64,000 nt of DNA from assembly GCA_963718665.1 (NCBI GenBank), contig OY970359.1, positions 2,400,001 to 2,464,000 on the forward strand, given 5' to 3'. This DNA comes from an uncultured Phycisphaerales bacterium. Lineage in GTDB: Bacteria; Planctomycetota; Phycisphaerae; Sedimentisphaerales; Anaerobacaceae. The notes below the pieces were generated by a model. The model searched no databases. It worked only from the letters and a program-made list of their open reading frames with translations, and was not told the origin of the DNA. Positions within the stretch are counted from its first letter, which is position 1. Each line of letters starts with the position of its first letter. Shown here piece after piece: positions 8,578 to 31,624 of the stretch. Position numbers and translations under genes: made by a program.

Positions 8578-10560
8578 GTGCTTACCAACAACCGTATCAA
8601 AGCTGTAATACTCGCTGGAGTTCGTGACTTTGGGCGCTGCCCCATAGCATCACGTTTGCCTGCACCGCTGTGGCCGGTGGCAGGAGAGTTTACCTTGAAA
8701 CGTCTGCTTCTGCACTTAGCCAGTCAGGGGATAAAGCACATAACAATCTGTTCGAACGGTGACAGTTCGTTGCTAAAGAAAGCAATTGATATTGAAAACA
8801 TCCGGACGTTAGATGTGTGTTTTTGGGAGGAACCGCTGCCGGTCGGCACCGCGGGATCCATTCGCGACGCCGTGAATGGTAAGACAGACGAATTGGTCCT
8901 GGTATTTTCCGCCAATATGATGCGTCCCCCCGATATTAGTTTGTTGATAGCCGCTCACCACGAACAGGGGGCCGACTTAACCGTGGCGTTCAATCCAGCG
9001 TCGGAAAATGACAATATAAGGGGTGAGGCAGCTGGCATCTATGTCTGCAATTCATCTGTGTTGGAACACATTCCAGCAGTAGGTTATTACGACATAAAAG
9101 AAAGTTTGATTCCGGAACTGCTTCGAGCTGGTAAACATGTGCATTATTCTGTGCTGCCACACAGTGCTGGCAATTTCCGCGATTGGCGAGGGTATTTGGA
9201 TGCCATCAGCAACTACCTCGAAAACATGGCAGAAACAGATATCGATTTGAAAATATGTGAGAAGAATAGCAGGCACGTTATCTGGAAGGGTCATGGGGCA
9301 ATTGTTGAGTCAGGAGTGCGGTTTTGCGGCCGGGTTGTTATTCTCGATGGCGCTCGCATCGAAACAGGTGTTGTGATATTTGGTCCGACTATTCTCGGGC
9401 GCAACGTCAGTATCGGCGAAGACAGTGTTGTTGCCGGCAGTGTTATTTGGGATAATTCGCAGATAGGTAAGAACTGTGAAATCCAACGATGCCTCGTCGA
9501 TTACAATGTGGTCGTGCCGGACAATAACGTGGCAGGGGGCAACTGCATACCATCTGAACCGAAGGGAAGCTTGAAAAGGTCGATTACCAGGGCGTCGAAG
9601 CCGGAGAAACAAGGAGTTGGCGGATTGCGGCGGCAACCGCAACAGGCGTTTGGCAATCTGAACGAAAAACAACCGAATCGAAGGCAACGACAAGAACGAA
9701 GCATTCTGCCGTGGTTGGCGAGTGGGTTTGTATTCCTTGCTTTCTTGTGGTCTTACTGGCCTGGGATTATGGACCTGTGGAATACCTGGCAGAGGAGTGA
9801 TGAGTATTCCTCCGGCCTTTTGGTTCCTTTTCTTGCTGTTTACATCTTGTGGTCGAGGCGCCGGCAGATAATCGGAGTTCAGATACAGCCATCCTTGTGG
9901 GGCCTGCTGGCGTTTGTGGTAGTTCAGGCGGTGAGATTCTTCGGTCTATTCTTTATGTACGGTTCCGCGGAGAGATTATCGATTGTTTTAAGCATTGCTG
10001 CGCTGGTGTTGCTCTTGTTTGGGTGGGAGTTTTTCCGCAAAGTGTCTCCAATAGTGCTGTTTCTGCTCTTGATGTTGCCTTGGCCCAATCGGGTTCAGGC
10101 CGCTCTCGCGTTGCCTCTGCAGCGATGGGCTACATCATCTGCGGTGTTCTGTCTGGAGGTGATGGGTTACGATGTTGCGCACGAAGGCAATATCATTCAT
10201 ATCGGTAATGTCACCGTCGCAGTGGCGGAAGCGTGTAACGGGTTAAGGATGGTCACGGCATTTTTTGTAATTAGTGGCCTTGTGGTATTGCTGGTCGAAC
10301 GGGCGTGGTGGGAAAAGCTGATAGTCTTTGTTTCCAGCTTGCCCATCGCTCTGCTCTGCAACACTGTGCGACTGGCAATTACCGCGATTGCTTTCACAGT
10401 ACTTAAAGGTGAATACTGGGAGAAGATGTTTCATGACTTTGGTGGATATGCGATGATGCCGCTGGCCCTTGCGATAGTAGTTGGTGAACTTTGGTTTTTG
10501 GTAAAACTAACGACAGCCCCAAAGCAGAATAGAATAGTGGTAACCAAGGGTGCCCAATGA
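8578..10560 (+). CDS. Fusion protein: degenerate nucleotidyltransferase + LbH + exosortase (EpsH family)
   Basis: N-terminal KAVILAG.. and EEPLPVGTAGSI, then hexapeptide repeats; C-terminal multi-TM domain with EACNGLR (Cys), CNTVR (Arg) and FHDFGG (His). Confidence 0.85.
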   Translation: MLTNNRIKAVILAGVRDFGRCPIASRLPAPLWPVAGEFTLKRLLLHLASQGIKHITICSNGDSSLLKKAIDIENIRTLDVCFWEEPLPVGTAGSIRDAVNGKTDELVLVFSANMMRPPDISLLIAAHHEQGADLTVAFNPASENDNIRGEAAGIYVCNSSVLEHIPAVGYYDIKESLIPELLRAGKHVHYSVLPHSAGNFRDWRGYLDAISNYLENMAETDIDLKICEKNSRHVIWKGHGAIVESGVRFCGRVVILDGARIETGVVIFGPTILGRNVSIGEDSVVAGSVIWDNSQIGKNCEIQRCLVDYNVVVPDNNVAGGNCIPSEPKGSLKRSITRASKPEKQGVGGLRRQPQQAFGNLNEKQPNRRQRQERSILPWLASGFVFLAFLWSYWPGIMDLWNTWQRSDEYSSGLLVPFLAVYILWSRRRQIIGVQIQPSLWGLLAFVVVQAVRFFGLFFMYGSAERLSIVLSIAALVLLLFGWEFFRKVSPIVLFLLLMLPWPNRVQAALALPLQRWATSSAVFCLEVMGYDVAHEGNIIHIGNVTVAVAEACNGLRMVTAFFVISGLVVLLVERAWWEKLIVFVSSLPIALLCNTVRLAITAIAFTVLKGEYWEKMFHDFGGYAMMPLALAIVVGELWFLVKLTTAPKQNRIVVTKGAQ

Positions 10561-14670: not shown

Positions 14671-17600
14671 ATGGCAGGGAGATATTTTAACTGGAAATTG
14701 ATAATAGTCTTGTTGATAGGACTTGTTGTTCTGGGCTCTACTGCTTTGGGTTTACGTAAATGGCAGAAAAGCAGAAGGGCCGAACAGGGGCTTGTGCTCG
14801 GGAACAAAGCGTATGATGAGCACAGGTGGGAAGAGGCAGCAAATCAACTTGGCCGTTATCTCGGTGTTATGCAGGATGATGTGCCGACGCTGCTCAAGTA
14901 TGCCGAGGCGCAGTTAAATATCAGACCTTTGAAACAAGACAACATTCAGCAGGCCATAGCAGCTTACCGGAACGTTTTGCGACTGGACCAAAGCAACATC
15001 AAGGCTGCGAAGCCCCTAAGTGAAATGTATTTAAGTATGGGGATGCCCGGAGAAGCCGAACTGGTTGTTACTCGGGCACTGCAAGCGGGCGAATCGATAG
15101 AACTGCGAAAAGTCCTGGCAATCGCTCTGGCAAACCAGCGCAAATTTACAGAAGCGGCAAAGGAGCTCAAAAGCATCATCGAGAAAAATCCCGAGCAGGC
15201 ATCGGTCTATGAGGTATTGGGTCGGCTGGTTGAGCAGCGTCCCGAAGAATTCACCGAAGACCCTAACTTTTGGTTTGACCAGGCAGTAAAAACAAACCCC
15301 TTTTCCGCAGAGGCCTATATTGCTCGCGGGGCATACTTCTTAAGGCATGGAAACAAGAATGGGGCGATGGCCGATTTGGAACAGGCAGAACAAAAGGATT
15401 TGTCCGATCCAACTACACGGCTTCGGCTTGCGGAGGGGTTGATTAATGCGGATGCTGCGGACCGCGCCAAAAAACAACTCGAGATTATTCATGCTTTGGA
15501 GCCAAACAATCAGCTTCTGTGGCAGCTATGGGCGCAGCTTGCACTTAAATCGGACTTAAATGATATGATGTTGAAAGTTGCGGACACCGGATTGAAAGAG
15601 CTTTCGTCTCAACCTTGGGATTTTATGCCCGATGCCGCAGAGTTGTTCATCAGATGTGGTCAGCTTGAACGTGCCGGAGAGTGTATCTCTATGATGCGCC
15701 AAAAGGACGTTGCTCCTGCGATGACGGCTTTTTTGGGGGGGCTTTTGGCTGAAAGCCAGGGACGCGGTTATGAAGCTGTCAAGTATTGGCGTCAAGCGAT
15801 TCAGTTGGGGGCTAAGTCCGCGAGGGTGCGAATCGCACTGGCTAACGCGCTATGGCGGCTTGGTGACAGGCAGTCAGGTATCAATCAGTTACGTACCCTC
15901 GTTTCGGAACAACCGAATCTTTTTAGCGGACGTATGGCTCTTGCACGGATGCTGGCGGAGACCGGTCGATGGGCTGATGTGGCGGAGCAAACTCGTATGG
16001 CAAGGCAAATCGCCCCGCATAGCGGCGATGCGGTCTTACTGGATATCCAGGCGAGGATACAAGTGCTCGCAGACAGCAAGACAGATAAGGAGTCATCGTC
16101 GTATCGTGATATAGAGGCGACACTTGATAACCTTGATAAAGCCACTAATGGCGCCATCGAAGTCAAACTTTTGCAGTTTCGGCTTGCTCTTCAGCGGGAC
16201 AAACTGCCTGAGGCCGAGAAACTAATAGCCGACTTGGAGAAGGCACATCCGGCTGAATTGAAGGTTACTTTGGCCGAGGCAGACTTGCTCGTTGCACAGA
16301 ACAAAATCGATGACGCAATCGCAAAACTACGCGAGGCAATCGGCACATCCCCGCAGTCCACGGCGGTTATGAGGTATCTTGTTGTTTTGCTGGCAGCAAA
16401 GGGGGACCATCAGGAATGTGAAACGCTGATTAAGTACGCCCTCGCATCCGGGGTACAACCTCCCGCGAAAATAGAGATGTGTTTGTTGCTGAGTGACGTT
16501 TATAGTCGCTGGAACGAGAGCGGCAAACGTTATTCGCTGCTCAACTCGCTTGCCGAGGAGCTGCAGGACGACATTATCGTCCAGCGGGAGCTGTTGACGT
16601 GTGAGGAGGTATTAAAAGACAGCAGCCGTGCACAGCATGTCGTTGACAGGATTAAGAGTATCGAGGGCGATGACGGCTGGCAGTGGCGATATGAACAGGC
16701 GAAGATTTGGTTCGCTCAGGAAGATTTCAAGAGTCGATACCCTCAAATCGTGTCGCTTCTTCAGGGAAATCTTCTGGCCAATCCCGATGACCAGGCCAGC
16801 CGAGTGTTGTTGGCGGCGGCATACGAAAAAGGGGATGACCAGCGTCTTGCGATTTCGACTTATACTGAGGCGATTAACCGATCACCAAAAGACATTCGGA
16901 TAATAGTGCCCGCGGTTGCCGCTCTTTATAGGGCTGGCGAATATGCCCGGGCGGAGGAAATTCTCAAGCAGGCGGCCGAAGAGAAGCTTTACCATCCCGA
17001 ACTGGAACGGCTGGAGATCCAGGGTGCCCTTGGACGCGGTGACCTTGGCTCTGCGAATGATGTTCTGGAGAAAATGCTGGACAGAGACCCGAACAACCAC
17101 TCGGTGTGCTTGTCTCTTGCCCTGCTGAAAATTCGGCAGGATCAATTAACGGAAGCGGATAAGTTGGTGGGGAAGTTGAGGACCGAAGAGCCGAATTCTT
17201 TGCCGATTGCTGCGGCACAAGTTGAGCTGGATATTCGCAGGGGCAAGTCCGACGACGCCTTACACATCTGTGATAAAATGGTGAATAAATTGCATACTGC
17301 TTCTGCCTGTTTGCTTCGCGGGAGGACATACGCTGCTCTGAAGCAGGCCGACAAGGCAAGAGAAGATTTTGAACGTGCAGTAACTATGGAACCCAACAAT
17401 GCGGATGCATGGGTTGCCAAGAGTATTTTTCATCATTCACTTGGAGAATCTGACAAGGCAATTTCCGATATTAGCCACGCATTATCTGTTATACCAGATG
17501 ACCTGCAAATCCAGAAAACCGCAGTGTCCCTTTATCTGGCATCGGACAATAATGCTTTACGTCAGGAAGGAGAGTCGATTCTTCAAAAAGCGATGGACTC

Positions 17601-18842
17601 GCATCCTGAAGATGCCGAACTTCGCCTCCAGAAAGCGCAGCTGCTGCTTGCCAAAGGGACAGCTCCAGAAATCGAGGAGGCAACAGGTATCCTTCAGGCC
17701 ATAACCGAAAAGCAGCCGGATGTTGGAGATGCTTGGGTGCTTCTGGCACAGATTGCTTTGCAGGACGGCAAACCAGCAAAGGCGATTGACATTGCTTTGC
17801 GTGGTCTTGTCCACAGGCCTAATGACAGAACCCTGCTGTTGTTGAAGGCGAGGGGGGAGGCGGCAAGGTCTCCGGCTCTGGCGTTGCCGACTATGAGGGC
17901 TTTGTGGGAACTCGACCCGAACAACGCAGACGCGACGGTTTCTCTGGCTGAAACATACGTGGCCGCGGGCGAGTATGAGGAGGCAGTAGATTTTCTCAGA
18001 AAACAACCGGCTTCTACAGATGCTTTGCAACAACGCAGGATTAAGTTGGCTCTTGCCATGGCGATGTACAAGAATGGCGATAAGACCGAGTCAGAGGAAA
18101 TACTCCGAGTGTTGTACGAGTCAGAACCGAACGACCCCAGTCCGTTGTTGGCACAAATCAGACTGCTGCGGGACGACAAACTGTGGGGCCAGTTGCGAGA
18201 GAAGGTTACCGCCTGGTGTGAAGAGCATTTCAATGAGACAAGAACAACTGTCTTTATCGCTGATGAGCTCGCGGGAGTCAAAGACGGCGAAAGTAAACAG
18301 ATAGCCGAGGAATTATTGCGATGCGTTCTGAAGCGAGATGCGAATTCTGCTGTGGTAATGACGCGACTTGGTATGTTGCTGCAGACGGCCGGGCATCGGC
18401 AGAAGCGGCAAAACTGTATGAGCGGGTTCTTGAACTGCAGCCCGATAATCCGATCGTCATTAATAATCTTGCGTGGATTCTTTGTGAGGAGCAGGGGCGT
18501 CCTAATGAGGCGATAGAGCTTGCTGAACGTGGCCTGGCGAAGGCGCCTGACTACGTTGATTTGATTGACACTCGTGGTATGGCGTACTATCGGCTGAAGC
18601 AGTACGACAAAGCGGCGCAGGATTTCAAGAAGTGCGTCCGCTTATATCCCAGCCGGGCGTTGGCCATAGTCACTTCGTATTTTCATTTGGGAAGGTGTCT
18701 GGCAGACCTTGGAGAAAAAGCTCAGGCAATTGAGCAATTGAACAAGGCCCTTGAGTTAAACAAAGAACTTGGCGGCCTGGGCAGCGCTGATATCGCCGAG
18801 GCACAGCGATTGCTGGTACAATTATCAGGTGGAGGAAATTAA
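14671..18842 (+). CDS. Large membrane-anchored TPR protein (PrsT-like), about 1390 aa, with a 1-nt frameshift near 18390
   Basis: N-terminal TM segment and many TPRs; ORF 14671-18516 continues in ORF 18321-18842 (NNLAWIL, DTRG); adding 1 nt restores one frame. Confidence 0.8.
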
Positions 18843-18843
18843 T

Positions 18844-19257
18844 ATGTTGGAATCATCACAACCAGGAAGAAAAGTCAGCGGCACTGATAACGGGGCGGAC
18901 GAGTCACTGTATAAGCGGCCTGATGTGAGTTTGCTTGATGATGGACAGTGGCTCTATGTGCAGCACCGCTATCGCTTAAGCCCGCGCGAGCTACAGGTGG
19001 CTAAACACGTATGCCAGGGGTTTGCCAACGAAGAGGTAGCAGCGTGCCTGAGGATAAGGGCCGGCACCGTGAAAACACACTTGCGCAACATTTACCGGAG
19101 AGTTCACGTCACCAACAAAATAGGGATGTTGCTGACCTTTGTTGAACAGGTAGCCAGTTCCTGTAGTAAACCCGGGACCGTCGGCTGCGGAATGACTATT
19201 GTTAATATGATACAGCAGGCAAAACCGGCTACAGGGTCATCTGATGAGACACATTAA
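18844..19257 (+). CDS. Stand-alone LuxR-type HTH regulator
   Basis: LSPRELQVA...TVKTHLRNIYRR; GGAGG upstream; starts 1 nt after the TPR stop codon. Confidence 0.85.
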   Translation: MLESSQPGRKVSGTDNGADESLYKRPDVSLLDDGQWLYVQHRYRLSPRELQVAKHVCQGFANEEVAACLRIRAGTVKTHLRNIYRRVHVTNKIGMLLTFVEQVASSCSKPGTVGCGMTIVNMIQQAKPATGSSDETH

Positions 19258-19489: not shown

Positions 19490-19519
19490 TTGACTAAATG
19501 CTTACGATAGAGTTAAACT
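19490..19519 (+). promoter_or_regulatory. Putative sigma70 promoter TTGACT-N18-TAAACT
   Basis: Near-consensus hexamers upstream of the 19606 gene, which has a GGAGGTG Shine-Dalgarno. Confidence 0.5.
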
Positions 19520-19605
19520 TACCTATTGTAGCTTAGTGCGGGGAGGGATCCCCAGGTAGTATAACGCCTCAGTTCTTTAGTATGTGTTAGGTGGAGGTGT
19601 AAAGA

Positions 19606-20415
19606 GTGTCAGAGCGGAGACGGGGGAAAACCTTAGCGATTGTGGTGTTGCTATGTGCGGCTTCGGTTGCCAGCGCATTTCCTACCGTCATTTCAGGAAA
19701 TGCACCCGTCTGTTCTATATCCACATCAGACGACTGCGCCACCAATGTTATGATCTATTGCCTGGGCCCCAGTGCGGCCTGCGACCAGATAAGTGAATTG
19801 GGCAGGGTGATGCTCCAGCCGCCGTCCGGCAGTCAGATAACGGTAACATCAGAGAACCAGCGTTGCCTGCCCGCGTTGCCGTCGGCGATAGCAATGGTTC
19901 TGACGGGATTCATATGTATCTCTTTGATTCGGGACCGCAGGGCCTGGCTGGCTGTCCTGGCGGGGCTGCTGTGGGTGGGCCAGACAGGTATTTGGGCTTT
20001 GCCCGAAGTGACCTCACGGCTGAGCCGAAGAGTCCACAGCGGCCAACAAGTTAACACGGCACTTGCTGCCCCGTATCCTCTCGGAGGATGTTTCTATCCA
20101 GATAGTTACAATGAAGAGACCCGATATGCAGGTCTTTTGCACCACCTTGCCGGCATACCTCGAGACATCAGCACCTTCACAAATAACCGCACGGTACTTA
20201 TCAGGTATTTTTCCGGCGTGGCCGGTAAAGATACGCGAGCATTGCATCACGCGATTCTCGAATCGCAGCTTGTCTTAAGCCAGCTAACTAACTGTTTGGT
20301 TTCCGGAACCAGGCAGTTCGTTTGTTTCAAACCAGCATTCATTTCTTTCTGCCAATTACCGCGTGGCCCTCCTATATCCGCAGAGATACTTTTTGAAAAA
20401 CCCGCAGGAGTGTAA
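19606..20415 (+). CDS. Exported/membrane protein with internal PEP-CTERM-like segment and C-terminal RGPP motif (candidate arrest-peptide leader)
   Basis: Signal peptide (..ASVASA), LPALPSAIAMVLTGFICISLIRDRR, a second TM segment, LPRGPP near the C-terminus; strong SD. Confidence 0.7.
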   Translation: MSERRRGKTLAIVVLLCAASVASAFPTVISGNAPVCSISTSDDCATNVMIYCLGPSAACDQISELGRVMLQPPSGSQITVTSENQRCLPALPSAIAMVLTGFICISLIRDRRAWLAVLAGLLWVGQTGIWALPEVTSRLSRRVHSGQQVNTALAAPYPLGGCFYPDSYNEETRYAGLLHHLAGIPRDISTFTNNRTVLIRYFSGVAGKDTRALHHAILESQLVLSQLTNCLVSGTRQFVCFKPAFISFCQLPRGPPISAEILFEKPAGV

Positions 20416-20512
20416 TCGCGAAACACTTCTTGAAGGTTTGAATCGTTTTAATAAGGAAACCGGCATTTTTGCCGGAAAAGATAAATCGAAAAAAATAGAA
20501 AGGATGACAATT

Positions 20513-21142
20513 ATGAAAAAGTTACTTTTAATAACAACGTTGGTCGCCTTAATGACCGTTCCGGTCTTGGCGACACCAACTATTGACTTCAGCCAGTCCA
20601 CCGGCGGATGGAGTTATACGGCATCGGGTCCGGGCACAGGGACTTTTTCGTTCCAGCCTATGATTATCGTTGATCAGGGACTGGGCAGTAGTTTGGACCC
20701 GCTCGTTGGTAAAGAGGTAGTCATCCCTGACCTGACTCTAAGTGTACTGAACGTCCTTACTCCAGTAACCTCAACGATAAAAATTACGGATGGTTCAACA
20801 GATTATCTTACCGGTACGCTCGGCAGTGGGAATGCTTACATAGTTTTTGCGACCGTAACCGGCTATCCCGAAATCCAAGCTGATATAACGGGCGTTACAG
20901 TTATTAACACCATTTCATCGCCGGCTTTGGCAGCTATTGACTCATATCCATTGGACTTTGCTCTTTCATTGAATTTGGCTGGGGTAAATGTCCAAAATGC
21001 AATCAGTCTTGGTCATCCAAATCTCAGAGGCGGTTCAGTGGCAGGATCGATGAACATTATCGTTCCTGCTCCTGGTGCAATTCTGCTGGGCAGCATCGGT
21101 GTGGGTCTTGTCGGCTGGTTGCGAAGGAGAAGAACACTGTAA
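20513..21142 (+). CDS. PEP-CTERM-type (VPAPGA) exosortase substrate
   Basis: Signal peptide MKKLLL..VLA; C-terminal [35 protein letters not shown]. Confidence 0.9.
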   Translation: MKKLLLITTLVALMTVPVLATPTIDFSQSTGGWSYTASGPGTGTFSFQPMIIVDQGLGSSLDPLVGKEVVIPDLTLSVLNVLTPVTSTIKITDGSTDYLTGTLGSGNAYIVFATVTGYPEIQADITGVTVINTISSPALAAIDSYPLDFALSLNLAGVNVQNAISLGHPNLRGGSVAGSMNIIVPAPGAILLGSIGVGLVGWLRRRRTL

Positions 21143-21181
21143 GGAATTACCTTGATGAGTTTTTTAAGAAGAAAGATGATT

Positions 21182-21847
21182 ATGAAAAAGTTAATTTTAA
21201 TAATAGCTTTGCTGGCGCTAATGGCAACACCTGCGCTGGCGGCCCCAACTATCAACATCGGTAACCAAAGTCTCGGATACTGGAAGCAGGGCGACCCCGG
21301 CACTACATATCAAGTCTGGGATTTCACGCCAGCTTCCCAGAATCCAGGTAATCCTATCCAGTTCTTCCCTGAGCAAGAATTAAATCCCAATGACCCGGGC
21401 AATATGGTTTACGCACAGACACTTCCTGGTACCTGGGATGGAAGCAGCGCTCTCGTAAGCAGCGCGGACAACGGCAACAGGATTGTTGTAGACTTGAAAA
21501 TCAATAACTATGCAAACGCCAACCCCTATAAGTATATCTGGGTTGACTTAGGGCTAACAGGTGGCAGCATAGAAAATGCTACAGCGGCAGGAGATGATCC
21601 CACAGTCGACGTTACCTCCAGTCTCGTCGGATCTGCACCTAATGGAATAGGAACTAGTTTCGGCTTTTTACTCAGGCCAAATCCGAGCTTTGAAACAATA
21701 GTAATCACTATAGATGGTGGATCACTGGATTGGATTCACGTCGATACCATCTGCACCACCACCACCGTCCCTGCTCCGGGAGCAATTTTGCTGGGCAGCA
21801 TTGGCGTAGGTCTTGTCGGCTGGCTTCGAAGACGCAGGACTTTGTGA
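21182..21847 (+). CDS. PEP-CTERM-type (VPAPGA) exosortase substrate
   Basis: Signal peptide MKKLIL..ALA; identical 26-aa C-terminal sorting signal after a Thr run. Confidence 0.9.
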
Positions 21848-21880: not shown

Positions 21881-21915
21881 GGGGCTGGGAATTACGACCC
21901 AGCCCCGTTTTTTTT
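21881..21915 (+). terminator. Rho-independent terminator
   Basis: GGGGCTGGG/CCCAGCCCC stem followed by a T run. Confidence 0.85.
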
Positions 21916-22328: not shown

Positions 22329-23156
22329 TTAGGCCGGGGTGCAGAAACTAACAGTGGGGTTTCGCCAGCTCCCAATACCATCCCACCAGTTTGAGATGTG
22401 GTCAGTAATAGTCAGGTTCTGATATTTCTCCTTATACAATTCCAGCGCCATACCGTGAAGCCGGTGCATACAATCGAGTCCTCCAATTTGCCATGCGCGA
22501 ACACCTATACCCACTGCCTGACGTTCGGCTTGTGCAAAATTTGCCCTGTTCGCAGTCAGAAGCACTGTGAGCTTTTCGGCATCAGGCGTCAGAAGCACCT
22601 GCCAGCGGCGCCGGTCCTGCTCCTGTTGTGCAAACAGCCGGTTGAGCAGTTCCTCTCGGTTTCGTTGTCGTTCTTCCCGCTGGCGTTTGCCTTCGGCCAG
22701 GCGCTGGAGCCGGTGCTCTCGACTCGTGGGTGCAAGCGTCTCCAACATTGAGGCCAGAGGGTCTATGATAACCCACGTCAGGAACGTTACTGCCAACGTT
22801 CCAAGAGCAATACCAGAAAGGAACTGGGTGATTCTTGTCTCGCCGGCCATTGCGACGGCGCCGGTCAAAACACCCAGTAAAGGCACCGAGACGTAAAAAG
22901 CTAGGTAGGGGCCTGAGCTGGTAAGAGGGTGCTCAGCAGTCATTTTTTGGCCTGTGGCGGTTGCACCAAATATAGCGAACAGATACAAGCTGATTAACAG
23001 AAATATCAATAATGCCGATTGCCCGGATAGAGAAAATATGAGCCACCAGTTGAACCCCGCCTGGCGCATTATCAGCATCGAGAGATAACCCAGGCACACC
23101 ACAAACCAGATGGTGCCCGCAAGGTGAACCATTTTCAGCGTATTTCTCTGGTTCAT
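22329..23156 (-). CDS. Hypothetical membrane protein (about 4 TM segments, coiled coil, C-terminal GGxxxM..WDGIGxW domain)
   Basis: Hydrophobic N-terminal half and charged helix; lies downstream of wza on the same strand. Confidence 0.7.
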   Translation of the reverse strand: MNQRNTLKMVHLAGTIWFVVCLGYLSMLIMRQAGFNWWLIFSLSGQSALLIFLLISLYLFAIFGATATGQKMTAEHPLTSSGPYLAFYVSVPLLGVLTGAVAMAGETRITQFLSGIALGTLAVTFLTWVIIDPLASMLETLAPTSREHRLQRLAEGKRQREERQRNREELLNRLFAQQEQDRRRWQVLLTPDAEKLTVLLTANRANFAQAERQAVGIGVRAWQIGGLDCMHRLHGMALELYKEKYQNLTITDHISNWWDGIGSWRNPTVSFCTPA

Positions 23157-24587: not shown

Positions 24588-24725
24588 TTCAAATCACTCA
24601 CACGAACCGGTATCAGCAAAATCTCCGACCGCGGCCTCGGCATAGACCGATTCCGCCTTCTCACCCACTCCGAAATCAACTACCTCCGGAAATCCACCGC
24701 CGAAAAACACCCGGCTAAGGATTAA
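24588..24725 (+). pseudogene. C-terminal fragment of an RsuA/RluB-family pseudouridine synthase
   Basis: KSLTRTGISKISDRGLGIDRFRLLTHSEINYLRK resembles the L-x-R-x-x-IG...L-x-x-G-x-x-R-x-LT-x-x-E C-terminus; no N-terminal part is present. Confidence 0.5.
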
Positions 24726-27567
24726 CATTAACCACATCGCGTCCGCTGAAACTGGCAAAATCGATTCCAAAAACCGTCTCGCCGGCAGCAGTTGCGAAAT
24801 TGGTCTTATTTATCGTCAGCGTAAACGTGCATTTGTTGAAATCAAAAGTCGCGGAGGCAATCCCTATAAGGGTGGAAGAATCATATAATTTCACCTTCGA
24901 GCAGGTGAATTTGTTTTTCCCGGCTTTGAAATTTCCCTCCGGTATCGTAAATGTCTGTGAACCAACGGTAACAGAGAACGAATGCGTTGCCATATTCTCA
25001 TCGTTAAGGTTTTCCACGGAGAACCCGCCGCTGACAGCAATCTGGGTGATGTTGCTCGTTATCTTATTGCGCGTGAATTTTGGCTTACCATCAACCCGCA
25101 GAGAATCCTTCACGCCCATCAAAAGGTTAATGGGTATGGGCGTTTTGGGGCCGTTGACTATTGTCTCGTTGACTTCGGCTGTCCCTGTCCAACCCCCAAC
25201 ATCTATCTCAATACCAACAGGGCAGGAAAGCCCCGTGAGGTCCACATTACTCGCCGAGAAGGAAAACGTCGTCTTCCTGGTATCGAAAGCAAAAGACATC
25301 TTCGAAGGTTTACTGGTTATCGTGCTGCTGAATTTGCCCTTCTTTAATGTCTTATTGTTGACTGGGAAGGTGAAAACACATGGGTCCATATCCTCAGCAT
25401 TCTCAGCTCTAATTGTAACCTCGACATTGGCATCGCTTGAGTTATTGGCGTCATTGAAATCATCCGCTGTGGCGCCCATCGTCCCTGAAAAGGAAATATT
25501 ATCGCTATTTACCTTACTGCCTGCAGTAACAGTGCATTTGATAATTGACACGGTATTTGAATTCGTGGAGACATAACCGGAATCCGATAAGCTGAAATCA
25601 CTTATCCCGCAACTGTTCTTGGCCTTGACCCAGTAGTAATACGTCGTCCCAGAGGTTACGCCGGAGTCATCAAAAGGCGATGTGTTGCTATCGCCTAACT
25701 TCGATGCCGAACCTGAACTTTTGCTGGTGCTGCGCCAGACCTCGTAACCGGTGGCATCTGAAGCCGAATCCCATGTTATTCTAATATGGTCGTTATATGT
25801 TCCATCGGTAGCAGATACGCCTGTGGGGGCCGATGGCACAGTGCAGGACGGTGAAGCATATCCTGAATCTGACGAGCTAAAGCCGCTTGTCCCGCAACTG
25901 TTCTTGGCCTTGACCCAGTAGTAATACGGTATGCCGGTAGATACGTTGCTGTCATCAAAAGGCGATGTATAATCACCTAACTTAAAGGCCGAACCTGAAT
26001 TGTTGCTGGTGTTGCGCCAGACCTCGTAATCGGTGGCGTCTGAAGCCGAATCCCATGTTACTATAATATGGTCGTTATATGTTCCATCGGTAGCAGATAC
26101 ACTTGTGGGAGCCGATGGCACAGTGCAGGACGGTGGTGGGGGTGGGGGTGGCGGCGTGGTCGTATGAGCATACCCTGAGTCCGACAAGCTAAAATCACTC
26201 GTCCCGCAGTCATTCCTGGCTTTCACCCAGTAGTAATACGTCGTCCCGGGAGTTACGCTGCTGTCACCAAAAGGTGATATTGTGGAATCACCTAACTTCG
26301 ATGCTGAGCTTGAATCGCTGTCATTGCTGCGCCAGACCTCATAGGCGGTGGCCCCGGAAACAGAATTCCAGGTGACCCGAACCTTATCTGTGTAAGTCCC
26401 GTCGCTGGCCGATACGCCTGTAGGAGCTGATGGAGGGGTGCAGATGGACTGCCAGGCGAGTTTTGGGTAATCCACGCCGGAGATTTGCCAGACAGAAGTG
26501 AAGTCCCACCCGGCGAAACTACTTTGCTGCTTCATTTGAGTATTCGTTAACGGCGTCCCAATACCGTTGTCAGGCCCGGCAGTATCCAGAAAATAGCTGT
26601 TTAAGATAAAGGTGCCATTATCGTCGTAAGTGAGATTGGTCCCAACCAGTCCGCCGATATCGGCATTATTAACTTCGACAGATACACTATCTGTTGAGTA
26701 GCAGTTGTTGATATCTCCCCAAAAGTTTATCCCTACCAGACCGCCGATACTCATGCAATTAGCTTCGTTTGTAACAGTCCCCGCCGAGTAACAATTTACG
26801 ATAATGCCTAAATAGTTTTTCCCTACCAGACCGCCGATGTATGAACTATTATTTCCGCCGGTAACAGCACTTGTCGAAAAACACATGTTGATAACACCAT
26901 TGCCGTAAATACCTCCTGCAAACCCGCCGATATAATTCGCATCATTGCCGCCGCTGACGGTACCTGCCGAATACGAATCGATAATATTGCCATCGTTAAC
27001 TTCCACCCCCACCAGCCCGCCCATATAGAAGGAATTATTTCCCCCGGCAACATCGCTATCAGAAAAACAGTTGCTGATAGTGCCCGCGTCTTCCCCTGCC
27101 AGTCCGCCGATAAAAGCTGAACCATTTCCGCCGGAGATGCTGAAATTTTCCAGCTGGAGATTTTCTATCTTACCCCCGGAACCAACAAATCCGAATAGTC
27201 CCAGGTAATTATTTCCGATTCCGCCGGTATTTATGGTCAGATTGCTGATTGTATGGCCGTTACCATCGAAAACACCGATGAACCTAACCCCGTCGAAACT
27301 GCTGTTTGTATTGTCCGTATCGGGCGCAATTATTGCGGCTGTAAATGTACCGGATGCGCTGAGGTCAATATCAGCCGTAAGAACAAAATTTGCGCCGTAA
27401 TCGCCTGTACTTAATGTCAGCAGGTCCGTCGCTGTGCCGATTTTGTATGGATCACCTGAAGTGCCCGACCCGCCGGAGTATTTGGCAAGGCAGACTTGGC
27501 CAAACAAAACCATCGCCGCAACAAACACAATTATCTGCCGTTTGGATATTCTTGTTTCTGAGTTCAT
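24715..27567 (-). CDS. Secreted surface protein with GLUG-type repeats and three FN3-like repeats
   Basis: Signal peptide, YSGGSGT..DPY, repeated IGGLVG, a Pro8 linker and three PSAPTGVSA..YYYWVKA units. Confidence 0.85.
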   Translation of the reverse strand: MNSETRISKRQIIVFVAAMVLFGQVCLAKYSGGSGTSGDPYKIGTATDLLTLSTGDYGANFVLTADIDLSASGTFTAAIIAPDTDNTNSSFDGVRFIGVFDGNGHTISNLTINTGGIGNNYLGLFGFVGSGGKIENLQLENFSISGGNGSAFIGGLAGEDAGTISNCFSDSDVAGGNNSFYMGGLVGVEVNDGNIIDSYSAGTVSGGNDANYIGGFAGGIYGNGVINMCFSTSAVTGGNNSSYIGGLVGKNYLGIIVNCYSAGTVTNEANCMSIGGLVGINFWGDINNCYSTDSVSVEVNNADIGGLVGTNLTYDDNGTFILNSYFLDTAGPDNGIGTPLTNTQMKQQSSFAGWDFTSVWQISGVDYPKLAWQSICTPPSAPTGVSASDGTYTDKVRVTWNSVSGATAYEVWRSNDSDSSSASKLGDSTISPFGDSSVTPGTTYYYWVKARNDCGTSDFSLSDSGYAHTTTPPPPPPPPSCTVPSAPTSVSATDGTYNDHIIVTWDSASDATDYEVWRNTSNNSGSAFKLGDYTSPFDDSNVSTGIPYYYWVKAKNSCGTSGFSSSDSGYASPSCTVPSAPTGVSATDGTYNDHIRITWDSASDATGYEVWRSTSKSSGSASKLGDSNTSPFDDSGVTSGTTYYYWVKAKNSCGISDFSLSDSGYVSTNSNTVSIIKCTVTAGSKVNSDNISFSGTMGATADDFNDANNSSDANVEVTIRAENAEDMDPCVFTFPVNNKTLKKGKFSSTITSKPSKMSFAFDTRKTTFSFSASNVDLTGLSCPVGIEIDVGGWTGTAEVNETIVNGPKTPIPINLLMGVKDSLRVDGKPKFTRNKITSNITQIAVSGGFSVENLNDENMATHSFSVTVGSQTFTIPEGNFKAGKNKFTCSKVKLYDSSTLIGIASATFDFNKCTFTLTINKTNFATAAGETVFGIDFASFSGRDVVNVNP

Positions 27568-28295
27568 TAGATATTTCCTTTAAATTTTCGAATTCAAAAT
27601 TTAATTATACACTGTCAAAATCATACCATAACAACCCCCTATTTCAACCACAAAACCACATGCTTACCCATTTTGCAAAACAAAGAAAAGCATTGCGCCA
27701 GCCCTTCCGAATCACGTTTTTATCGGATGTTCCTGAGTGCCGTAAGAAGAATTAAAAAAGTTTACTGTTAAATATCAGCAGAAGCTGAATGTTCGCTTTG
27801 CACAATTCAACAGGATGTAGATTGTAATCTGAATAGCCGCGAAAAACCCGGCAAATGATCAAAGAGCAACACTATAAAAAGGATAATCGCGTGCAAAACC
27901 GGCTCAAACCCTGTACTATAAAAAAACTCATCCGACGTGAAGTTTTGAGGACACCTGACCTTAAAGCAGCTTATTTCATTGAAATTGGTCAACGTAACGT
28001 AGTCTTCTTATACGGCTTAAGCCACCGCGCACCATTTTTTCCGGAAGGTATTTTTCGTGTGAAGCGGCCACGAGCGTGCCCCCGCTAGTGGATCACAGAG
28101 ATAACTTTCTGGCCCACAGGGGAACAGTTCTCAATAGCGTTTTGCTTAAGTAAAAAAGATTAATCCGAGCCATCGATTTGCAACAGACATGCTCGTTTGA
28201 GCTACTGTTACGCTTCGGTTGCGCTTCGGTCAGCATCATAAGTCTTTATTTGACAAGCATAAACCGTTTATTCACAAATACTTACAAAACCCCGA

Positions 28296-28343
28296 ATCGG
28301 ACTGTCGATCCGAAGGTTGAGGGTTCGAGCCCCTTCGGCCTCG
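28296..28343 (+). tRNA. tRNA-Asp(GTC) 3' fragment (anticodon arm to discriminator); not an intact gene
   Basis: tcgga-ctGTCga-tccga, aggtt, gaggg-ttcgagc-ccctt, cggcctc-G; no D-arm or 5' acceptor strand upstream. Confidence 0.8.
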
Positions 28344-28406
28344 CTTGCAGAAATAAAACATGATGCCTTTGCGGCGACCTGTTTTGTTGAGCCAATCATC
28401 AGGATA

Positions 28407-29543
28407 TCATCTGGGTTTGCTATACCATTCTTTTACGATTTTCTCCGCCGGCTTTCCGTATATGCAGAAGGTCGTATCGCTTTTCGCTTTTTCGAGCGAA
28501 TAAAGGTCGGTGTGCCAGTCCCACCATGCGTAACCGATGAACCATGGCTCGTCCCAGAAGGTTTCCAGCATCACCTGGTAAAATCTCGCCTGTTCATCGC
28601 CGTCGTAAACCATCGTATTGGGGTCGTTGTGAGTCCAGGGGATGGCGCTGCACCCCTTGGCACTGCACATCCCAAGCTCGATGAAAAATACCGGGCGATT
28701 AAATTTCTGGCTTACCTTGCGCAGATTTTCTTTTACCGGCATCACTCTTCGCCTAAGCGCCTCTAATGTGGTATCTGACGGCAGAACATTGTTAAGGTCT
28801 TTCATTGCCGTCTGCACATCATCTGTCCCTATCGGGTAGTATCCGCTTACGCCTATGACGTCCGTCGCGTCCCACCATCTTATTTTGATTTCATCGCCGT
28901 GATTGGTGTTGTAAGTAACTGCGCCGGGATAAATCTTTCGTATCTCGGCAATCAAATCCCGCCAGCGGTTGACGAACGGCTCAGTTGTCGTCATCTCGCA
29001 TCCTAAGCACAGCATTTCGCAGTTTGTTTCTTTGGCAAGCTGGGCGTAATGCAGAAGAAACCGGTCGAACTCGGCCCACCATTGCGCCCACAGCTCCGAG
29101 TCGATGGTTTTGCCGTCCGATTTTCTAAATTGAATATATCCTCGCCATGTGCCGTCCCGCACGTTGACTGTGGGCTTGAGGATGACTTTGAGATTATTCT
29201 TGCGTGCAAGCTCAATAGCCCCGCGAATTTCATTGTCCGTAGCCATACACGGGTCGTTTTCGCCCCAGAAGATATTCGGCTCATTTGGCTTGTTCATTTC
29301 CGCGCCAAAAGCGATACAGACCCAGTTGGCGCCCGTATCGGCCAGCTTCTTCATCGACTCAGCCGGCGCATCGCCGAGATATTGTCCCCGCGTCCCCGTC
29401 CAGCCCCAGCTATGACCCTTTATAAAACCCGTCGGCGAATATGTGCTGGTAAACTTGGAGGGCTGATTTGCATCTGCTGCGAACGCAGATGATGCAATAC
29501 ATAAAACAGAGGTCACAAGACAAAGCGATATTCTTTTAATCAC
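28407..29543 (-). CDS. Glycoside hydrolase family 113 (beta-mannanase-like)
   Basis: Signal peptide; VILKP, WRG, LGCEM, YNTNH, FIELG and WWDW motifs. Confidence 0.8.
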   Translation of the reverse strand: MIKRISLCLVTSVLCIASSAFAADANQPSKFTSTYSPTGFIKGHSWGWTGTRGQYLGDAPAESMKKLADTGANWVCIAFGAEMNKPNEPNIFWGENDPCMATDNEIRGAIELARKNNLKVILKPTVNVRDGTWRGYIQFRKSDGKTIDSELWAQWWAEFDRFLLHYAQLAKETNCEMLCLGCEMTTTEPFVNRWRDLIAEIRKIYPGAVTYNTNHGDEIKIRWWDATDVIGVSGYYPIGTDDVQTAMKDLNNVLPSDTTLEALRRRVMPVKENLRKVSQKFNRPVFFIELGMCSAKGCSAIPWTHNDPNTMVYDGDEQARFYQVMLETFWDEPWFIGYAWWDWHTDLYSLEKAKSDTTFCIYGKPAEKIVKEWYSKPR

Positions 29544-29557
29544 AGTTACATCTCCAA

Positions 29558-31426
29558 TCAGTTATGTTTTCCGTATTTTATTTCCACGCGGGATATTTGT
29601 GCTTCGCACCCATATTCTATTTTCAGATATTGTGCGTCATCGCCGGCTCCTGTGCCTGTATAAAGAACAGGAGAGTAATAGCTGTAATCGCCCTTGCCGG
29701 TGAAGTAATCGTGACGTGAGAACTTGACGGGCGTGAACTTTTGGTCGTCGGCGGACACATAAAAATTAAAATCCGTAATACTTGCAGGGAAGAATGAATA
29801 AACCTCCCAGGAAACAATCGGCGGTTCTACTTTGTAAATTATGGAACTTCCTTTTATGCCTTTCAGCCGGTGTATGTCCTCTTTGAATTTGCGTGCTTCT
29901 TTTGTCTCTAACGACAGTGCCCCTTTGCGATTATTGATTGACTTAAAATCCTGCAGTTCATCGACAAGTGTTTTGCAGGTTACAGACACAGGCCCAACGA
30001 CGTTTGATGGCCCGGATTCGCCCGCGGAGTTCCCTGCTGTAACACGGTAATAATAGCTTTTGCCGATTTCGACTCCGGTGTCATTGAAAAGGGGGCGATA
30101 TTGAAAATCAGCATCGGATATATTTTGTCCTGCGCTCAGCCACGGGCCATCTTTAGATTCTGCTCTTTCGATTGTGTAACCGGAAGCGCCTGCACTGCCT
30201 TGCCAGGAAATTGCCGCCGCGTTTTTAATATCGAGAAGTGTCGGCTCTGAGGGCTTTTCAATGGCCGGGACAGCAGCGGGGGTGATTTCAAAGGCCTTAC
30301 GACGCATCAGGGATAAAACATTGGCCTCGTCAAAAGTGTCGCCGGAAGCAAAGCCCGGCCAATGGTATGCCTTGTACTTGTCGCCTCCGTGCGGCTCGCT
30401 GTGTGAATAGAAGCCGCCGTCGCGGTCATGAAAACGCAGCGACCAGATTAAAACGCCGCTTACCTTTTCATCTCTTACGGCATCCAGCAGGGATTCGACG
30501 TCTTTGGTGGGGATAAAACCGAACTCGCCGACAATATAGGCCTTTTTACCGCGGGCAAGGGCGGCGGTCCCTTTAATCTGTTCAATCATCTCAGCAGGGC
30601 TTATCGGTATCTTGAACATAACAGGATAGTGATGAGTCGTAACGATATCGATGTTTTTATCTTCAAGCGACAGGTCGCGGACGGGGGTTAGATGATAGCC
30701 GTCCATAACAAGATGATTCGGGTCGATACTTTTAATGTATGCGGCGGCCTTGACCGTCCACTCCGGCGGGCATATAAGCTCATTACCGGTCTCCCACGCG
30801 AGGATGGCCTTGTCGTCCCGGTATTTTACGCCTGTAATCGAATTGGTGCGGTTTACGACCGAATTAACAATCGCTTTATAATCCTCAAAAAGCTCAGGGT
30901 CGGTCCAGAAATCATCCCTTGTTTTGCCCCTGAATGCTGCGCAGGCCTCGATTCCACCCCACCATCTGGCGTTATCGATGAATGGGAAAATAATCCGAAT
31001 GCCCTTTTTATTCGCGATAGCCAGGGTCATATCGAGGGATTTATACGCCTTTTCATTGAATTTCCCCGGCCCGACTACATGCCTGGGGATATTAGGGTCT
31101 TCGCTGGCTCTGCGGAGGGAAAGCGTGTAAATACGCGCGACCCGGCCCCCCATTTGCCTGACGGATTCGAGCGCATCGTTGATTTCGAATTCATCGGGCA
31201 GCCGCCAGGGGTTCATCTCGGTGAAAGGCATGTTATCTTCGTTATAGTGCAAACAGGGGACGTTAAAACTGATAAAGCGAAACTCGCCGTTTTCGTCCAT
31301 TAGCTTGTCGCCGCGGGTATAAACAAAGGATTTAAACATTGAGTCGGATTGTCTGGCGGAAGTTTCGGCCTTTGTGACAGATATGAGTAAGGCCATAGTT
31401 GCGAGCAGAACGATTAACTTTTTCAT
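29558..31426 (-). CDS. GH5 endo-mannanase-like enzyme with FN3 domain
   Basis: Signal peptide; AWETGNE, TTHHY, VGEFG and WSLR motifs; YYYRVTA FN3 motif. Confidence 0.82.
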   Translation of the reverse strand: MKKLIVLLATMALLISVTKAETSARQSDSMFKSFVYTRGDKLMDENGEFRFISFNVPCLHYNEDNMPFTEMNPWRLPDEFEINDALESVRQMGGRVARIYTLSLRRASEDPNIPRHVVGPGKFNEKAYKSLDMTLAIANKKGIRIIFPFIDNARWWGGIEACAAFRGKTRDDFWTDPELFEDYKAIVNSVVNRTNSITGVKYRDDKAILAWETGNELICPPEWTVKAAAYIKSIDPNHLVMDGYHLTPVRDLSLEDKNIDIVTTHHYPVMFKIPISPAEMIEQIKGTAALARGKKAYIVGEFGFIPTKDVESLLDAVRDEKVSGVLIWSLRFHDRDGGFYSHSEPHGGDKYKAYHWPGFASGDTFDEANVLSLMRRKAFEITPAAVPAIEKPSEPTLLDIKNAAAISWQGSAGASGYTIERAESKDGPWLSAGQNISDADFQYRPLFNDTGVEIGKSYYYRVTAGNSAGESGPSNVVGPVSVTCKTLVDELQDFKSINNRKGALSLETKEARKFKEDIHRLKGIKGSSIIYKVEPPIVSWEVYSFFPASITDFNFYVSADDQKFTPVKFSRHDYFTGKGDYSYYSPVLYTGTGAGDDAQYLKIEYGCEAQISRVEIKYGKHN

Positions 31427-31552
31427 TTGCAGCTTCCTTGCGTTATCGAAGTTATGTTAAGACCGGACAAAAGCTACACCATTTTAGCGTTGGCTTCGGT
31501 TCTATCAAGTATCTTCAAGTGAAAGAATGCGGTTTTATATGTCCCTAAAATA

Positions 31553-31592
31553 AACGGGGCCTGCCCCGCCACTCGGCGTTGCAAGCCCCGAA
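31553..31592 (-). terminator. Probable terminator of the 31625-34834 gene
   Basis: CGGGGC..GCCCCG stem, followed by TTTATTTT on the minus strand. Confidence 0.55.
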
Positions 31593-31624
31593 GAAAACAC
31601 TAACTAATTAACAAGTTGCGTTTG

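Follow-up and report, generated by a model that had tools for sequence, protein, structure and literature searches.

A candidate ribosome-arrest leader resembling exosortase cargo ahead of two PEP-CTERM genes in an uncultured Phycisphaerales bacterium

Why would two genes for PEP-CTERM proteins, the cargo of an exosortase, be headed by a gene whose product looks like cargo itself, contains an internal look-alike of the cargo sorting signal and carries the arrest-type motif RGPP near its C-terminus? The question is posed by a 64,000-nucleotide stretch of DNA from an uncultured Phycisphaerales bacterium (contig OY970359.1, positions 2,400,001 to 2,464,000), referred to below in its whole length as the window, in which the gene in question, here termed the leader gene, occupies positions 19606–20415. 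It is about 20 years since exosortases and PEP-CTERM proteins became known from genomes, the sorting signal and its exosortase reportedly having been described by Haft in 2006, and the way in which an exosortase recognizes and handles the signal is still poorly tested; arrest peptides of the RAPP/RGPP type are reported by Sakiyama (2021) and by Fujiwara (2024, PMC10987492; 2025, PMC12992588). The first-pass annotation of the window had proposed that the leader may sense the export or exosortase processing of such signals and thereby tune expression of the surface proteins. The comparative analysis described here makes it fairly probable that the leader is a cargo-like exported membrane protein which likely stalls its ribosome, the prediction being that this stall determines how strongly the two PEP-CTERM genes are expressed. 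The features on which the argument turns are the following.

19606–20415, forward strand: leader gene with a GTG start, 269 amino acids and a TAA stop at 20413–20415; its product resembles cargo as a putative exported membrane protein and has RGPP near the C-terminus
19606–19680, forward strand: signal-peptide-like N-terminus, residues 1–25, with RRRGK, a hydrophobic core and SVASA as an AxA-type end
19867–19941, forward strand: internal PEP-CTERM-like segment LPALPSAIAMVLTGFICISLIRDRR, residues 88–112, composed of LPALPSA, 14 hydrophobic residues and RDRR
19942–20010, forward strand: second hydrophobic helix, residues 113–135, conservation 0.78, Kyte-Doolittle value below threshold
20125–20160, forward strand: motif Y-x-G-L-L-H-H-L-A-G-I-P, residues 174–185, in which Y174, G176, L177, L178, L181, G183 and I184 are invariant
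20287–20361, forward strand: the 25 residues preceding RGPP (NCL..QF.CF.PAFI.F..LP), conservation 0.67
20362–20373, forward strand: RGPP arrest-type motif, R253-G254-P255-P256, invariant in 100 aligned sequences
20513–21142, forward strand: first PEP-CTERM cargo gene, 209 amino acids, with a PEP-CTERM tail
21176–21847, forward strand: second PEP-CTERM cargo gene, its tail identical to that of the first and its start either ATG 21176 or ATG 21182

The leader open reading frame (ORF) is a real gene of a large unannotated family. Its product has no Pfam or NCBIfam match at E ≤ 1, and a look-up in the ESM Atlas returned no match at or above 0.9, the SecM and DUF2946 clusters seen at 0.79 being at chance level. 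Homologues of comparable length found by a word-indexed search number 225, all of them named 'hypothetical protein', and a profile search covering 1.84 billion cluster representatives found 435 family clusters (50% identity) at E ≤ 1e-3 and 245 at E ≤ 1e-30. Most homologues come from metagenome-assembled genomes of Planctomycetota, Phycisphaerae and Sedimentisphaerales, and species-representative genomes hold 77 leader loci, of which 75 are complete and two have the ORF cut by a contig end. In an alignment of 100 sequences, conserved blocks are parted by variable, indel-rich linkers; the blocks comprise the end of the signal peptide with P26-T27, residues 88–112, 113–135 and 174–185 and the 25-residue stretch that leads up to RGPP. 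Averaged over columns, conservation is 0.80 in the look-alike segment, hereafter the anchor (88–112), 0.78 in the helix 113–135, 0.83 in the block 171–186 with HHLAGIP, 0.67 in residues 228–252, 1.0 in RGPP and 0.23 in the residues that follow it. The positions given by the first-pass annotation for the anchor and for RGPP, the stop 13 codons further on and the next ATG at 20513 all check.

Within this family the motif recurs beyond chance. Among the 150 best representatives, RGPP is present in 123, RAPP in 7, RSPP in 8 and HGPP in 6, and several of the six sequences with none are visibly truncated or fragments; exactly three residues follow the motif in 89 of the 144 that bear it. The complete loci have RGPP in 67 cases, RAPP in one, HGPP in two and none in five; of the 70 loci that bear a motif, 51 have it three residues from the stop, and RGPP stays invariant in the 100-sequence alignment down to 37% identity. 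Conservation of the motif among homologues, on which the first-pass annotation had made its proposal depend, is thus borne out, the motif being either invariant or replaced by RAPP, RSPP or HGPP only, as in published clusters. In a crude gene set of the bacterium's own genome (2321 ORF-based genes, 786,295 amino acids) RGPP occurs once, as does RAPP, 243 residues from a C-terminus, and AGPP and AAPP occur 7 and 12 times, respectively. Across 63 distinct loci the Arg, Gly and first Pro codons of the motif vary synonymously, which indicates that selection acts on the peptide. The Arg codon is never AGA or AGG, though AGR accounts for 35% of Arg codons genome-wide, and the second Pro codon is CCU in 55 of the 63 loci as against 19% of Pro codons genome-wide. 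The tRNA-Pro anticodons in the genome are CGG, GGG and UGG.

The inference of stalling is strong because this pattern fits the published findings on RAPP/RGPP peptides. According to the available parts of PMC12992588, the Arg of the arrest motif is irreplaceable, a Gly in place of the Ala is tolerated in full or even strengthens the arrest, and Ser is tolerated in part; such motifs are depleted from proteomes, with a mean_bias of 0.154 for RGPP in Planctomycetota, and are over-represented towards the C-terminal end of small secreted or membrane proteins encoded upstream of diverse genes, and seven of seven S. lividans proteins of that description stalled. RGPP, HGPP and RSPP are found in natural RAPP clusters, and the third codon of the motif is in the P site at the stall (PMC10987492, likewise available in part). 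Set beside the RAPP/RGPP (RQH-class) peptides, namely ApdA, ApdP, the uA_/uDF_RQH groups and the seven S. lividans proteins, the leader shares every defining feature of the class that can be judged from sequence. It is shorter than 300 residues with an N-terminal localisation signal, keeps R-(G/A/S)-P-P near the C-terminus while the rest drifts, has a co-directional gene directly downstream and shows the natural variants RGPP, RAPP, RSPP and HGPP within its family. It differs in having no sequence relation to the class outside the motif, in preceding PEP-CTERM cargo and carrying an internal copy-like sorting signal, and from most members in being longer and having more conserved blocks. The comparison with the published peptides leaves the arrest-leader reading well supported, and the RGPP of the leader very probably causes programmed ribosome stalling.

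The same observations bear on a reading without any regulation, in which the protein would be a functional membrane part of the PEP-CTERM/exopolysaccharide system, such as an exosortase accessory or adaptor, and RGPP a structural or C-terminal recognition feature. Several conserved blocks are unrelated to stalling, some family members lack the motif, and the neighbourhood is conserved in that a tetratricopeptide repeat (TPR) gene, a LuxR-type regulator and a membrane protein accompany the leader in 34, 35 and 31 of the 77 loci, respectively, all of which would suit such a component. Ordinary proteins, however, strongly avoid motifs of the RGPP type, and the only substitutions seen are those of the arrest-peptide clusters; the residues after the motif are unconserved, the chain mostly ending three residues on, no folded domain is predicted, and the gene is absent from half of the related genomes that have cargo. 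This reading is considered very unlikely. In the AlphaFold2 model of the leader (mean predicted local distance difference test score, pLDDT, 59.1; predicted template modelling score 0.25) there is no compact fold, and the chain forms separate helices at residues 6–23, 55–70, 93–109, 111–145, 171–182 and 211–234, of which the long helix 111–145 includes residues 113–135 at a pLDDT of about 80, with residues 234–253 falling below 50.

The genes behind the leader are cargo in most loci, as the first-pass annotation had anticipated. Of the 70 loci with a motif, 62 have a gene with a PEP-CTERM tail that ends no more than 1.3 kb downstream, six others being too short to judge and two having none, and the loci usually hold two to three cargo genes in tandem. 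In the window, the Pfam PEP-CTERM model scores 19.0 and 19.4 bits on the two cargo proteins, just below its cut-off of 20.7, and 21.5 and 23.6 bits, above the cut-off, on the same genes in a six-frame search of the genome. The cargo tail class is found in the bacterium's own genome only in the two genes behind the leader.

The likeness of the leader to this cargo appears to lie in architecture and profile and not in plain sequence. Like the PEP-CTERM signal (PF07589/TIGR02595), the anchor has a Pro motif, some 14–17 hydrophobic residues and an Arg cluster, with a spacing equal to that of the local cargo tails; unlike it, the anchor is internal (residues 88–112 of 269) and its motif is LPA(L/V)PxA and not (I/V)PAPGA, and by profile or position it is no bona fide PEP-CTERM domain. 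When the leader-family profile was aligned to the cargo-tail profile with hhalign, residues 89–113 matched tail positions 4–28 in 25 gapless columns with P 1.7e-5 and a probability of 79% for the segment alone and P 5e-4 for the whole protein, and the control segments, helix 113–135 and the signal peptide, gave P 0.12 and 0.024, respectively. A hidden Markov model (HMM) of the cargo tail reached 11.4 bits at best (E 0.02) on other members of the leader family. The resemblance to the cargo signal claimed by the first-pass annotation is seen in the profile alignment; the window's segment is not recognized by Pfam and is not among the matches listed for this HMM. A further shared trait is a 'PT' just past the signal peptide, which 97 of 100 leaders and 33 of 63 first cargo proteins possess, as against 18 of the 405 N-termini in the genome that look like signals; in the leader alignment P26 is kept in at least 90% of the sequences and T27 in all.

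Among the long blocks of the family, the anchor and one other are the best conserved. Its residues P89, P92, G101, C104 and R111 are invariant in the 100 sequences and F102, S106 and D110 nearly so. RGPP is kept, three or six residues from the end, in two highly divergent leaders (22% and 27% identity), which also have cargo downstream; with these included, the alignment retains 15 invariant columns, of which eight lie in the anchor and three in RxPP. The idea that the look-alike and RGPP might be the only conserved parts accordingly holds insofar as the two contain most invariant columns in the most divergent members, and fails in its strict form, since the helix 113–135, the YxGLLHHLAGIP motif and the 25 residues before RGPP are conserved too. 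The second transmembrane segment proposed at 113–135 likewise survives as a conserved helix, which the AlphaFold2 model also predicts, and not as a clear membrane span: in a Kyte-Doolittle scan over 19 residues only residues 11–29 (2.31) and 90–108 reach the threshold of 1.6.

A signal-peptide-like N-terminus with one clear transmembrane segment is also what a classical arrest leader would have, one released solely by Sec-dependent export or membrane insertion, with the look-alike being an anchor inherited from a cargo ancestor and the exosortase uninvolved. Cargo ancestry would account for the likeness, the failure of the Pfam model to recognize the anchor would be in keeping with it, and the characterised monitoring substrates of the class all respond to pulling by Sec or YidC, as far as the accessible portions of PMC10987492 and PMC12992588 go. 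The anchor is, however, constrained far beyond the needs of a plain transmembrane segment, as its five invariant residues attest, and persists at 22–27% identity where nearly everything else has changed; moreover, the genes presumably regulated are exosortase cargo and not Sec components. Release by Sec alone is for these reasons regarded as unlikely. The decoy-like character of the anchor suggests that something specific reads it, for which the exosortase is the obvious candidate, and the exosortase is here put forward tentatively as the partner sensed by the leader. The nearest one is encoded 9 kb upstream.

8578–10560, forward strand: nucleotidyltransferase-exosortase fusion, Exosortase_EpsH 198.6 bits, the exosortase nearest to the leader

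The fusion would be the candidate enzyme for both the cargo and the look-alike. It has 660 amino acids with an N-terminal sugar-nucleotidyltransferase and a hexapeptide-repeat part, and is of a common kind, with 1295 homologues of similar length, many of them labelled simply 'exosortase'. A second exosortase lies at C1:1354403 of the bacterium's own genome.

The mechanism favoured here, a possible one which is nonetheless held with considerable doubt as a whole, is that of a decoy: the exosortase would engage the look-alike on the ribosome, pull the nascent chain out of arrest and thus set transcription of the cargo genes through Rho. The ribosome would halt when Pro255 occupies the P site and Pro256 the A site, in the same register as in the published RAPP/RGPP peptides, and the 25 conserved residues before RGPP would then occupy the exit tunnel. 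The halt would last until the chain is pulled, once the exported part and the look-alike have been handled in the membrane, preferentially by the exosortase that sorts the real cargo. Meanwhile, the parked ribosome would shield the leader mRNA at its C-rich end and hold Rho off a polymerase paused at the intergenic hairpin, so that transcription would continue into the cargo genes; after release the ribosome would finish and depart, and Rho would terminate, according to the scheme of CruR. That the stall serves to control the cargo genes in one way or another appears reasonably probable. The following RNA features lie between the stall site and the cargo.

20300–20385, forward strand: C-rich, G-poor stretch over the stall site, C minus G about +0.15 in 78-nucleotide windows centred at 20340–20370
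20397–20440, forward strand: hairpin 1, inner stem AGGAGUGU/ACACUUCU, loop AAUCGCGAA and outer stem AAACC/GGUUU, with the leader stop in the loop in the window
20460–20475, forward strand: hairpin 2, CCGGC-AUUUUU-GCCGG, from folding and from alignments judged by eye
20498–20503, forward strand: Shine-Dalgarno sequence AAAGGA of the first cargo gene, conserved as UAAAGGAU followed by AUGAAAAAGUUA

The preference for a mechanism of this type comes from the three-residue distance of the motif from the stop, the stretch of C over G, the presence of Rho in the bacterium's own genome and the likeness to CruR, which together favour CruR-like attenuation. In CruR, a DUF2946 protein of Bordetella pertussis, RAPP lies three residues short of the C-terminal end, a bubble of C over G reaches from the end of the upstream ORF (uORF) into the intergenic region, and the stalled ribosome prevents intergenic Rho-dependent termination (Roy 2022, PMC9426467, in the parts available). 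The leader family resembles it in having the motif followed by three codons, in the stretch of C over G from the uORF end into the intergenic region, in the long intergenic region and in a downstream gene outside the Sec machinery. Counted from the Arg codon, C exceeds G between −100 and +20 in 95–100% of the 62 loci compared, the C-rich, G-poor stretch as such spanning about −140 to +20, and mean C minus G at the stall is +0.14, as against −0.023 for coding-strand windows of the genome, 4.7% of which reach +0.14; by analogy the stretch may be a Rho-loading region. The leader departs from CruR in that it is no DUF2946 protein (no Pfam match at E ≤ 1) and has no link to copper, in that the family consensus lacks a CxxC at fixed spacing, as would be expected of a CruR protein about 45 residues before RAPP, and in that a conserved hairpin follows the leader stop, whereas CruR needs an unstructured stretch, as described in the available parts of its source.

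Hairpin 1 is a two-tier structure whose loop centre lies 40–57 nucleotides past RGPP in 48 of 62 distinct loci, wherever the stop falls, and it might act as a polymerase pause site. It occurs in two sequence classes of equal geometry with compensatory and G-U pairs. A covariance model of class A matches the window at 20385–20454 with 65.8 bits and finds a single match per locus, only at the 3′ end of the leader, in 24 loci and the window at E ≤ 0.01; it has no match before second or third cargo genes or in leaderless clusters. Rfam gave at E ≤ 1 only a sub-threshold rseX match on the opposite strand. At the place of hairpin 2 the other loci have stems of differing sequence, and the cargo Shine-Dalgarno sequence lies in an open, A-rich stretch 3′ of both hairpins. 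Several other roles were considered for hairpin 1. As an intrinsic terminator it lacks a U tract and was not called by the scan that found the terminator behind the second cargo gene; a role as DNA operator of the LuxR-type neighbour is disfavoured, since the stems use strand-specific G-U pairs, which makes a reading as RNA preferable; and a genome-wide repeat is set aside, there being a single other copy, at a paralogous cargo gene. A pairing of CGCGG, the Arg-Gly codons, with the hairpin loop, noted by eye, was dropped, as loci with CGA-GGN cannot form it. In class B loci (L047, L051, L058, L061, L065, L067, L069, L073 and others) a conserved GGAGGUUGAUG, often GGAGGUUGAUGUAA, is found just 3′ of hairpin 1, which amounts to a Shine-Dalgarno-like sequence with a start codon that a stop follows at once; the leader ORF of five loci extends to the UAA of this element, giving RGPP plus 26 residues.

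The folds bear on a second route from stall to expression, the one known from SecM, MifM and VemP, in which the parked ribosome would melt a helix masking the Shine-Dalgarno sequence of the first cargo gene. With the pairs SecM-secA, MifM-yidC2 and VemP-secDF2 the leader has in common a substrate-like product of a localisation pathway with a force-sensitive, arrest-type C-terminal end; it differs in preceding cargo, where those leaders control machinery, and in having no conserved helix for unmasking, and no Pfam match to SecM itself (PF06558) was found in the leader, behind which lie PEP-CTERM genes and not secA. In the minimum-energy fold of the window, CAUUUCUUUCUG (20339–20350) pairs with the Shine-Dalgarno region of the cargo, GAAAGGAUG, and a predicted partner of the ribosome-binding site (RBS) falls on the motif in L054, L064, L069 and L084. 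That fold, however, is no better than those of shuffled sequences (z −0.55), the predicted partners are scattered over the 61 loci folded, and the Shine-Dalgarno sequence is placed 3′ of both conserved hairpins in the A-rich stretch. Partition-function folds of the 61 loci with and without a footprint, and of 34 standard loci, gave no systematic change: a stalled footprint leaves RBS accessibility flat (0.43 to 0.42) in the former, and in the latter it is 0.42, 0.40 and 0.42 with the ribosome at RGPP or at the stop included. The coupling of this kind implied by the first-pass annotation thus finds no conserved support, and unmasking is judged quite unlikely.

A number of observations weigh against the decoy reading with CruR-like attenuation. 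The Pfam PEP-CTERM model did not match the look-alike of the window at E ≤ 1, neither in the protein nor in the genome-wide scan, and the window leader is not among the matches listed for the cargo-tail HMM. In the window leader the stop comes 13 codons past RGPP and not three as is usual, RGPP itself lying 140 nucleotides before the first cargo ATG, and the excess of C over G may follow from the conserved F, S, P, A, L and R codons themselves. An arrest function leaves unexplained why the helix 113–135 and the YxGLLHHLAGIP motif are as conserved as the look-alike. Between the last hydrophobic segment and the stall lie 120–147 residues, a number that varies by indels, and this counts against a timed force from membrane insertion and in favour of a pull that is motor-like or driven by binding. 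No conserved structure joins the stall to the RBS of the cargo in the folds of 61 and 34 loci, and under the logic of CruR efficient handling of the decoy would lower cargo synthesis, in which no obvious homeostatic design is apparent. Finally, the accessible parts of the literature on such motifs contained no test with planctomycete ribosomes.

The leader is also dispensable, as indicated by leaderless genomes, leaderless clusters, motif-less members and a leaderless copy, and these points tell against the same reading. Of 41 related genomes, 34 have similar cargo tails and 17 the leader, the count being the same with a single-sequence or a profile query, and eight examined cargo clusters have no leader. 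Five of the 75 complete loci lack the motif, and four of these five still precede cargo. The motif-less loci, L079–L083, form a subgroup, and in L079, L080 and L082 the cargo starts 14, 0 and −43 nucleotides from the stop, compared with the looser usual junction of 50–230 nucleotides. The genome itself holds a copy of the module of hairpin, Shine-Dalgarno sequence and cargo, 90% identical, that is devoid of the leader body. This copy (C1:2386300-2387344), about 13 kb before the start of the window, matches 20370–20536 in 150 of 167 nucleotides and comprises the codons after RGPP, hairpin 1, hairpin 2, the Shine-Dalgarno sequence and the cargo start. It precedes a paralogue 62% identical to the second cargo gene; upstream it joins codons resembling the leader signal peptide, the body including RGPP being deleted.

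What would be new at this locus is that a known stall motif and a known principle are applied to the cargo of a sorting pathway by way of a built-in copy of the sorting signal. The statement of the first-pass annotation that no arrest peptide is known for exosortase systems agrees with a search of the accessible literature, which found none among the papers listed, and neither PEP-CTERM nor exosortase is named in the main text and nine of the ten supplement files of PMC12992588. If the reading is true, a signal-copying leader with a force-sensitive stall turns recognition by the exosortase into a reporter read-out, that is, a genetically readable, built-in assay of the recognition of a signal by an exosortase, and nascent-chain sensing would extend from Sec/YidC and metals to a cell-surface sorting pathway. 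Should the decoy in particular prove right, it would be without precedent among monitoring substrates, both in serving a sorting transpeptidase and in governing cargo rather than machinery. Even on a cautious view, several hundred 'hypothetical proteins' would gain a function, arrest peptides of the RAPP/RGPP type a new target class, and the Phycisphaerae would be added as a lineage for which the accessible part of the literature searched describes no such regulation.

The remaining signals and neighbours of the leader-cargo unit are listed below.

18769–19257, forward strand: LuxR/GerE-type regulator with an EpsA-like helix-turn-helix, just upstream of the leader
19490–19519, forward strand: promoter-like site TTGACT-18-TAAACT 5′ of the leader gene, a weak call from consensus match alone with 9 of 12 hexamer positions
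19593–19597, forward strand: Shine-Dalgarno sequence GGAGG of the leader, 8 nucleotides 5′ of the GTG start, read from the sequence
21881–21906, forward strand: canonical intrinsic terminator closing the leader-cargo unit, with a 9-bp GC stem and a U tract

Promoter-like sites are no more numerous in the leader region than in shuffled sequences, and the terminator scan of the unit found no terminator other than the one behind the second cargo gene. Taken more widely, the window represents an exopolysaccharide/exosortase locus with glycosyltransferases, a tyrosine autokinase and a priming transferase, and also holds a PrsT-like TPR protein and, on the opposite strand, a polysaccharide export protein. 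The TPR gene stands upstream of the leader in its 34 loci, as does the LuxR-type regulator in 34, and in the 35th (L067) the regulator lies downstream on the opposite strand; the remaining loci of the 77 retain the leader-cargo pair only. The membrane protein found downstream of the unit in 31 loci, usually beside the polysaccharide export gene, is in the window a 275-residue protein (22329–23156, reverse strand) with a charged, coiled-coil-like middle and no family match. On the reverse strand at 24715–34834 there are four large ORFs (950, 378, 622 and 1069 amino acids) without an NCBIfam match at E ≤ 1e-5. A deletion of one nucleotide at 18390–18400, where the window has GGCCGGGC-ATCGG and a 95% identical relative GGCCGGGCGCTCGG, divides the PrsT-like TPR gene into frames 14671–18516 and 18321–18842; the gene is a single ORF in five relatives, and the split is either a true frameshift or an assembly error.

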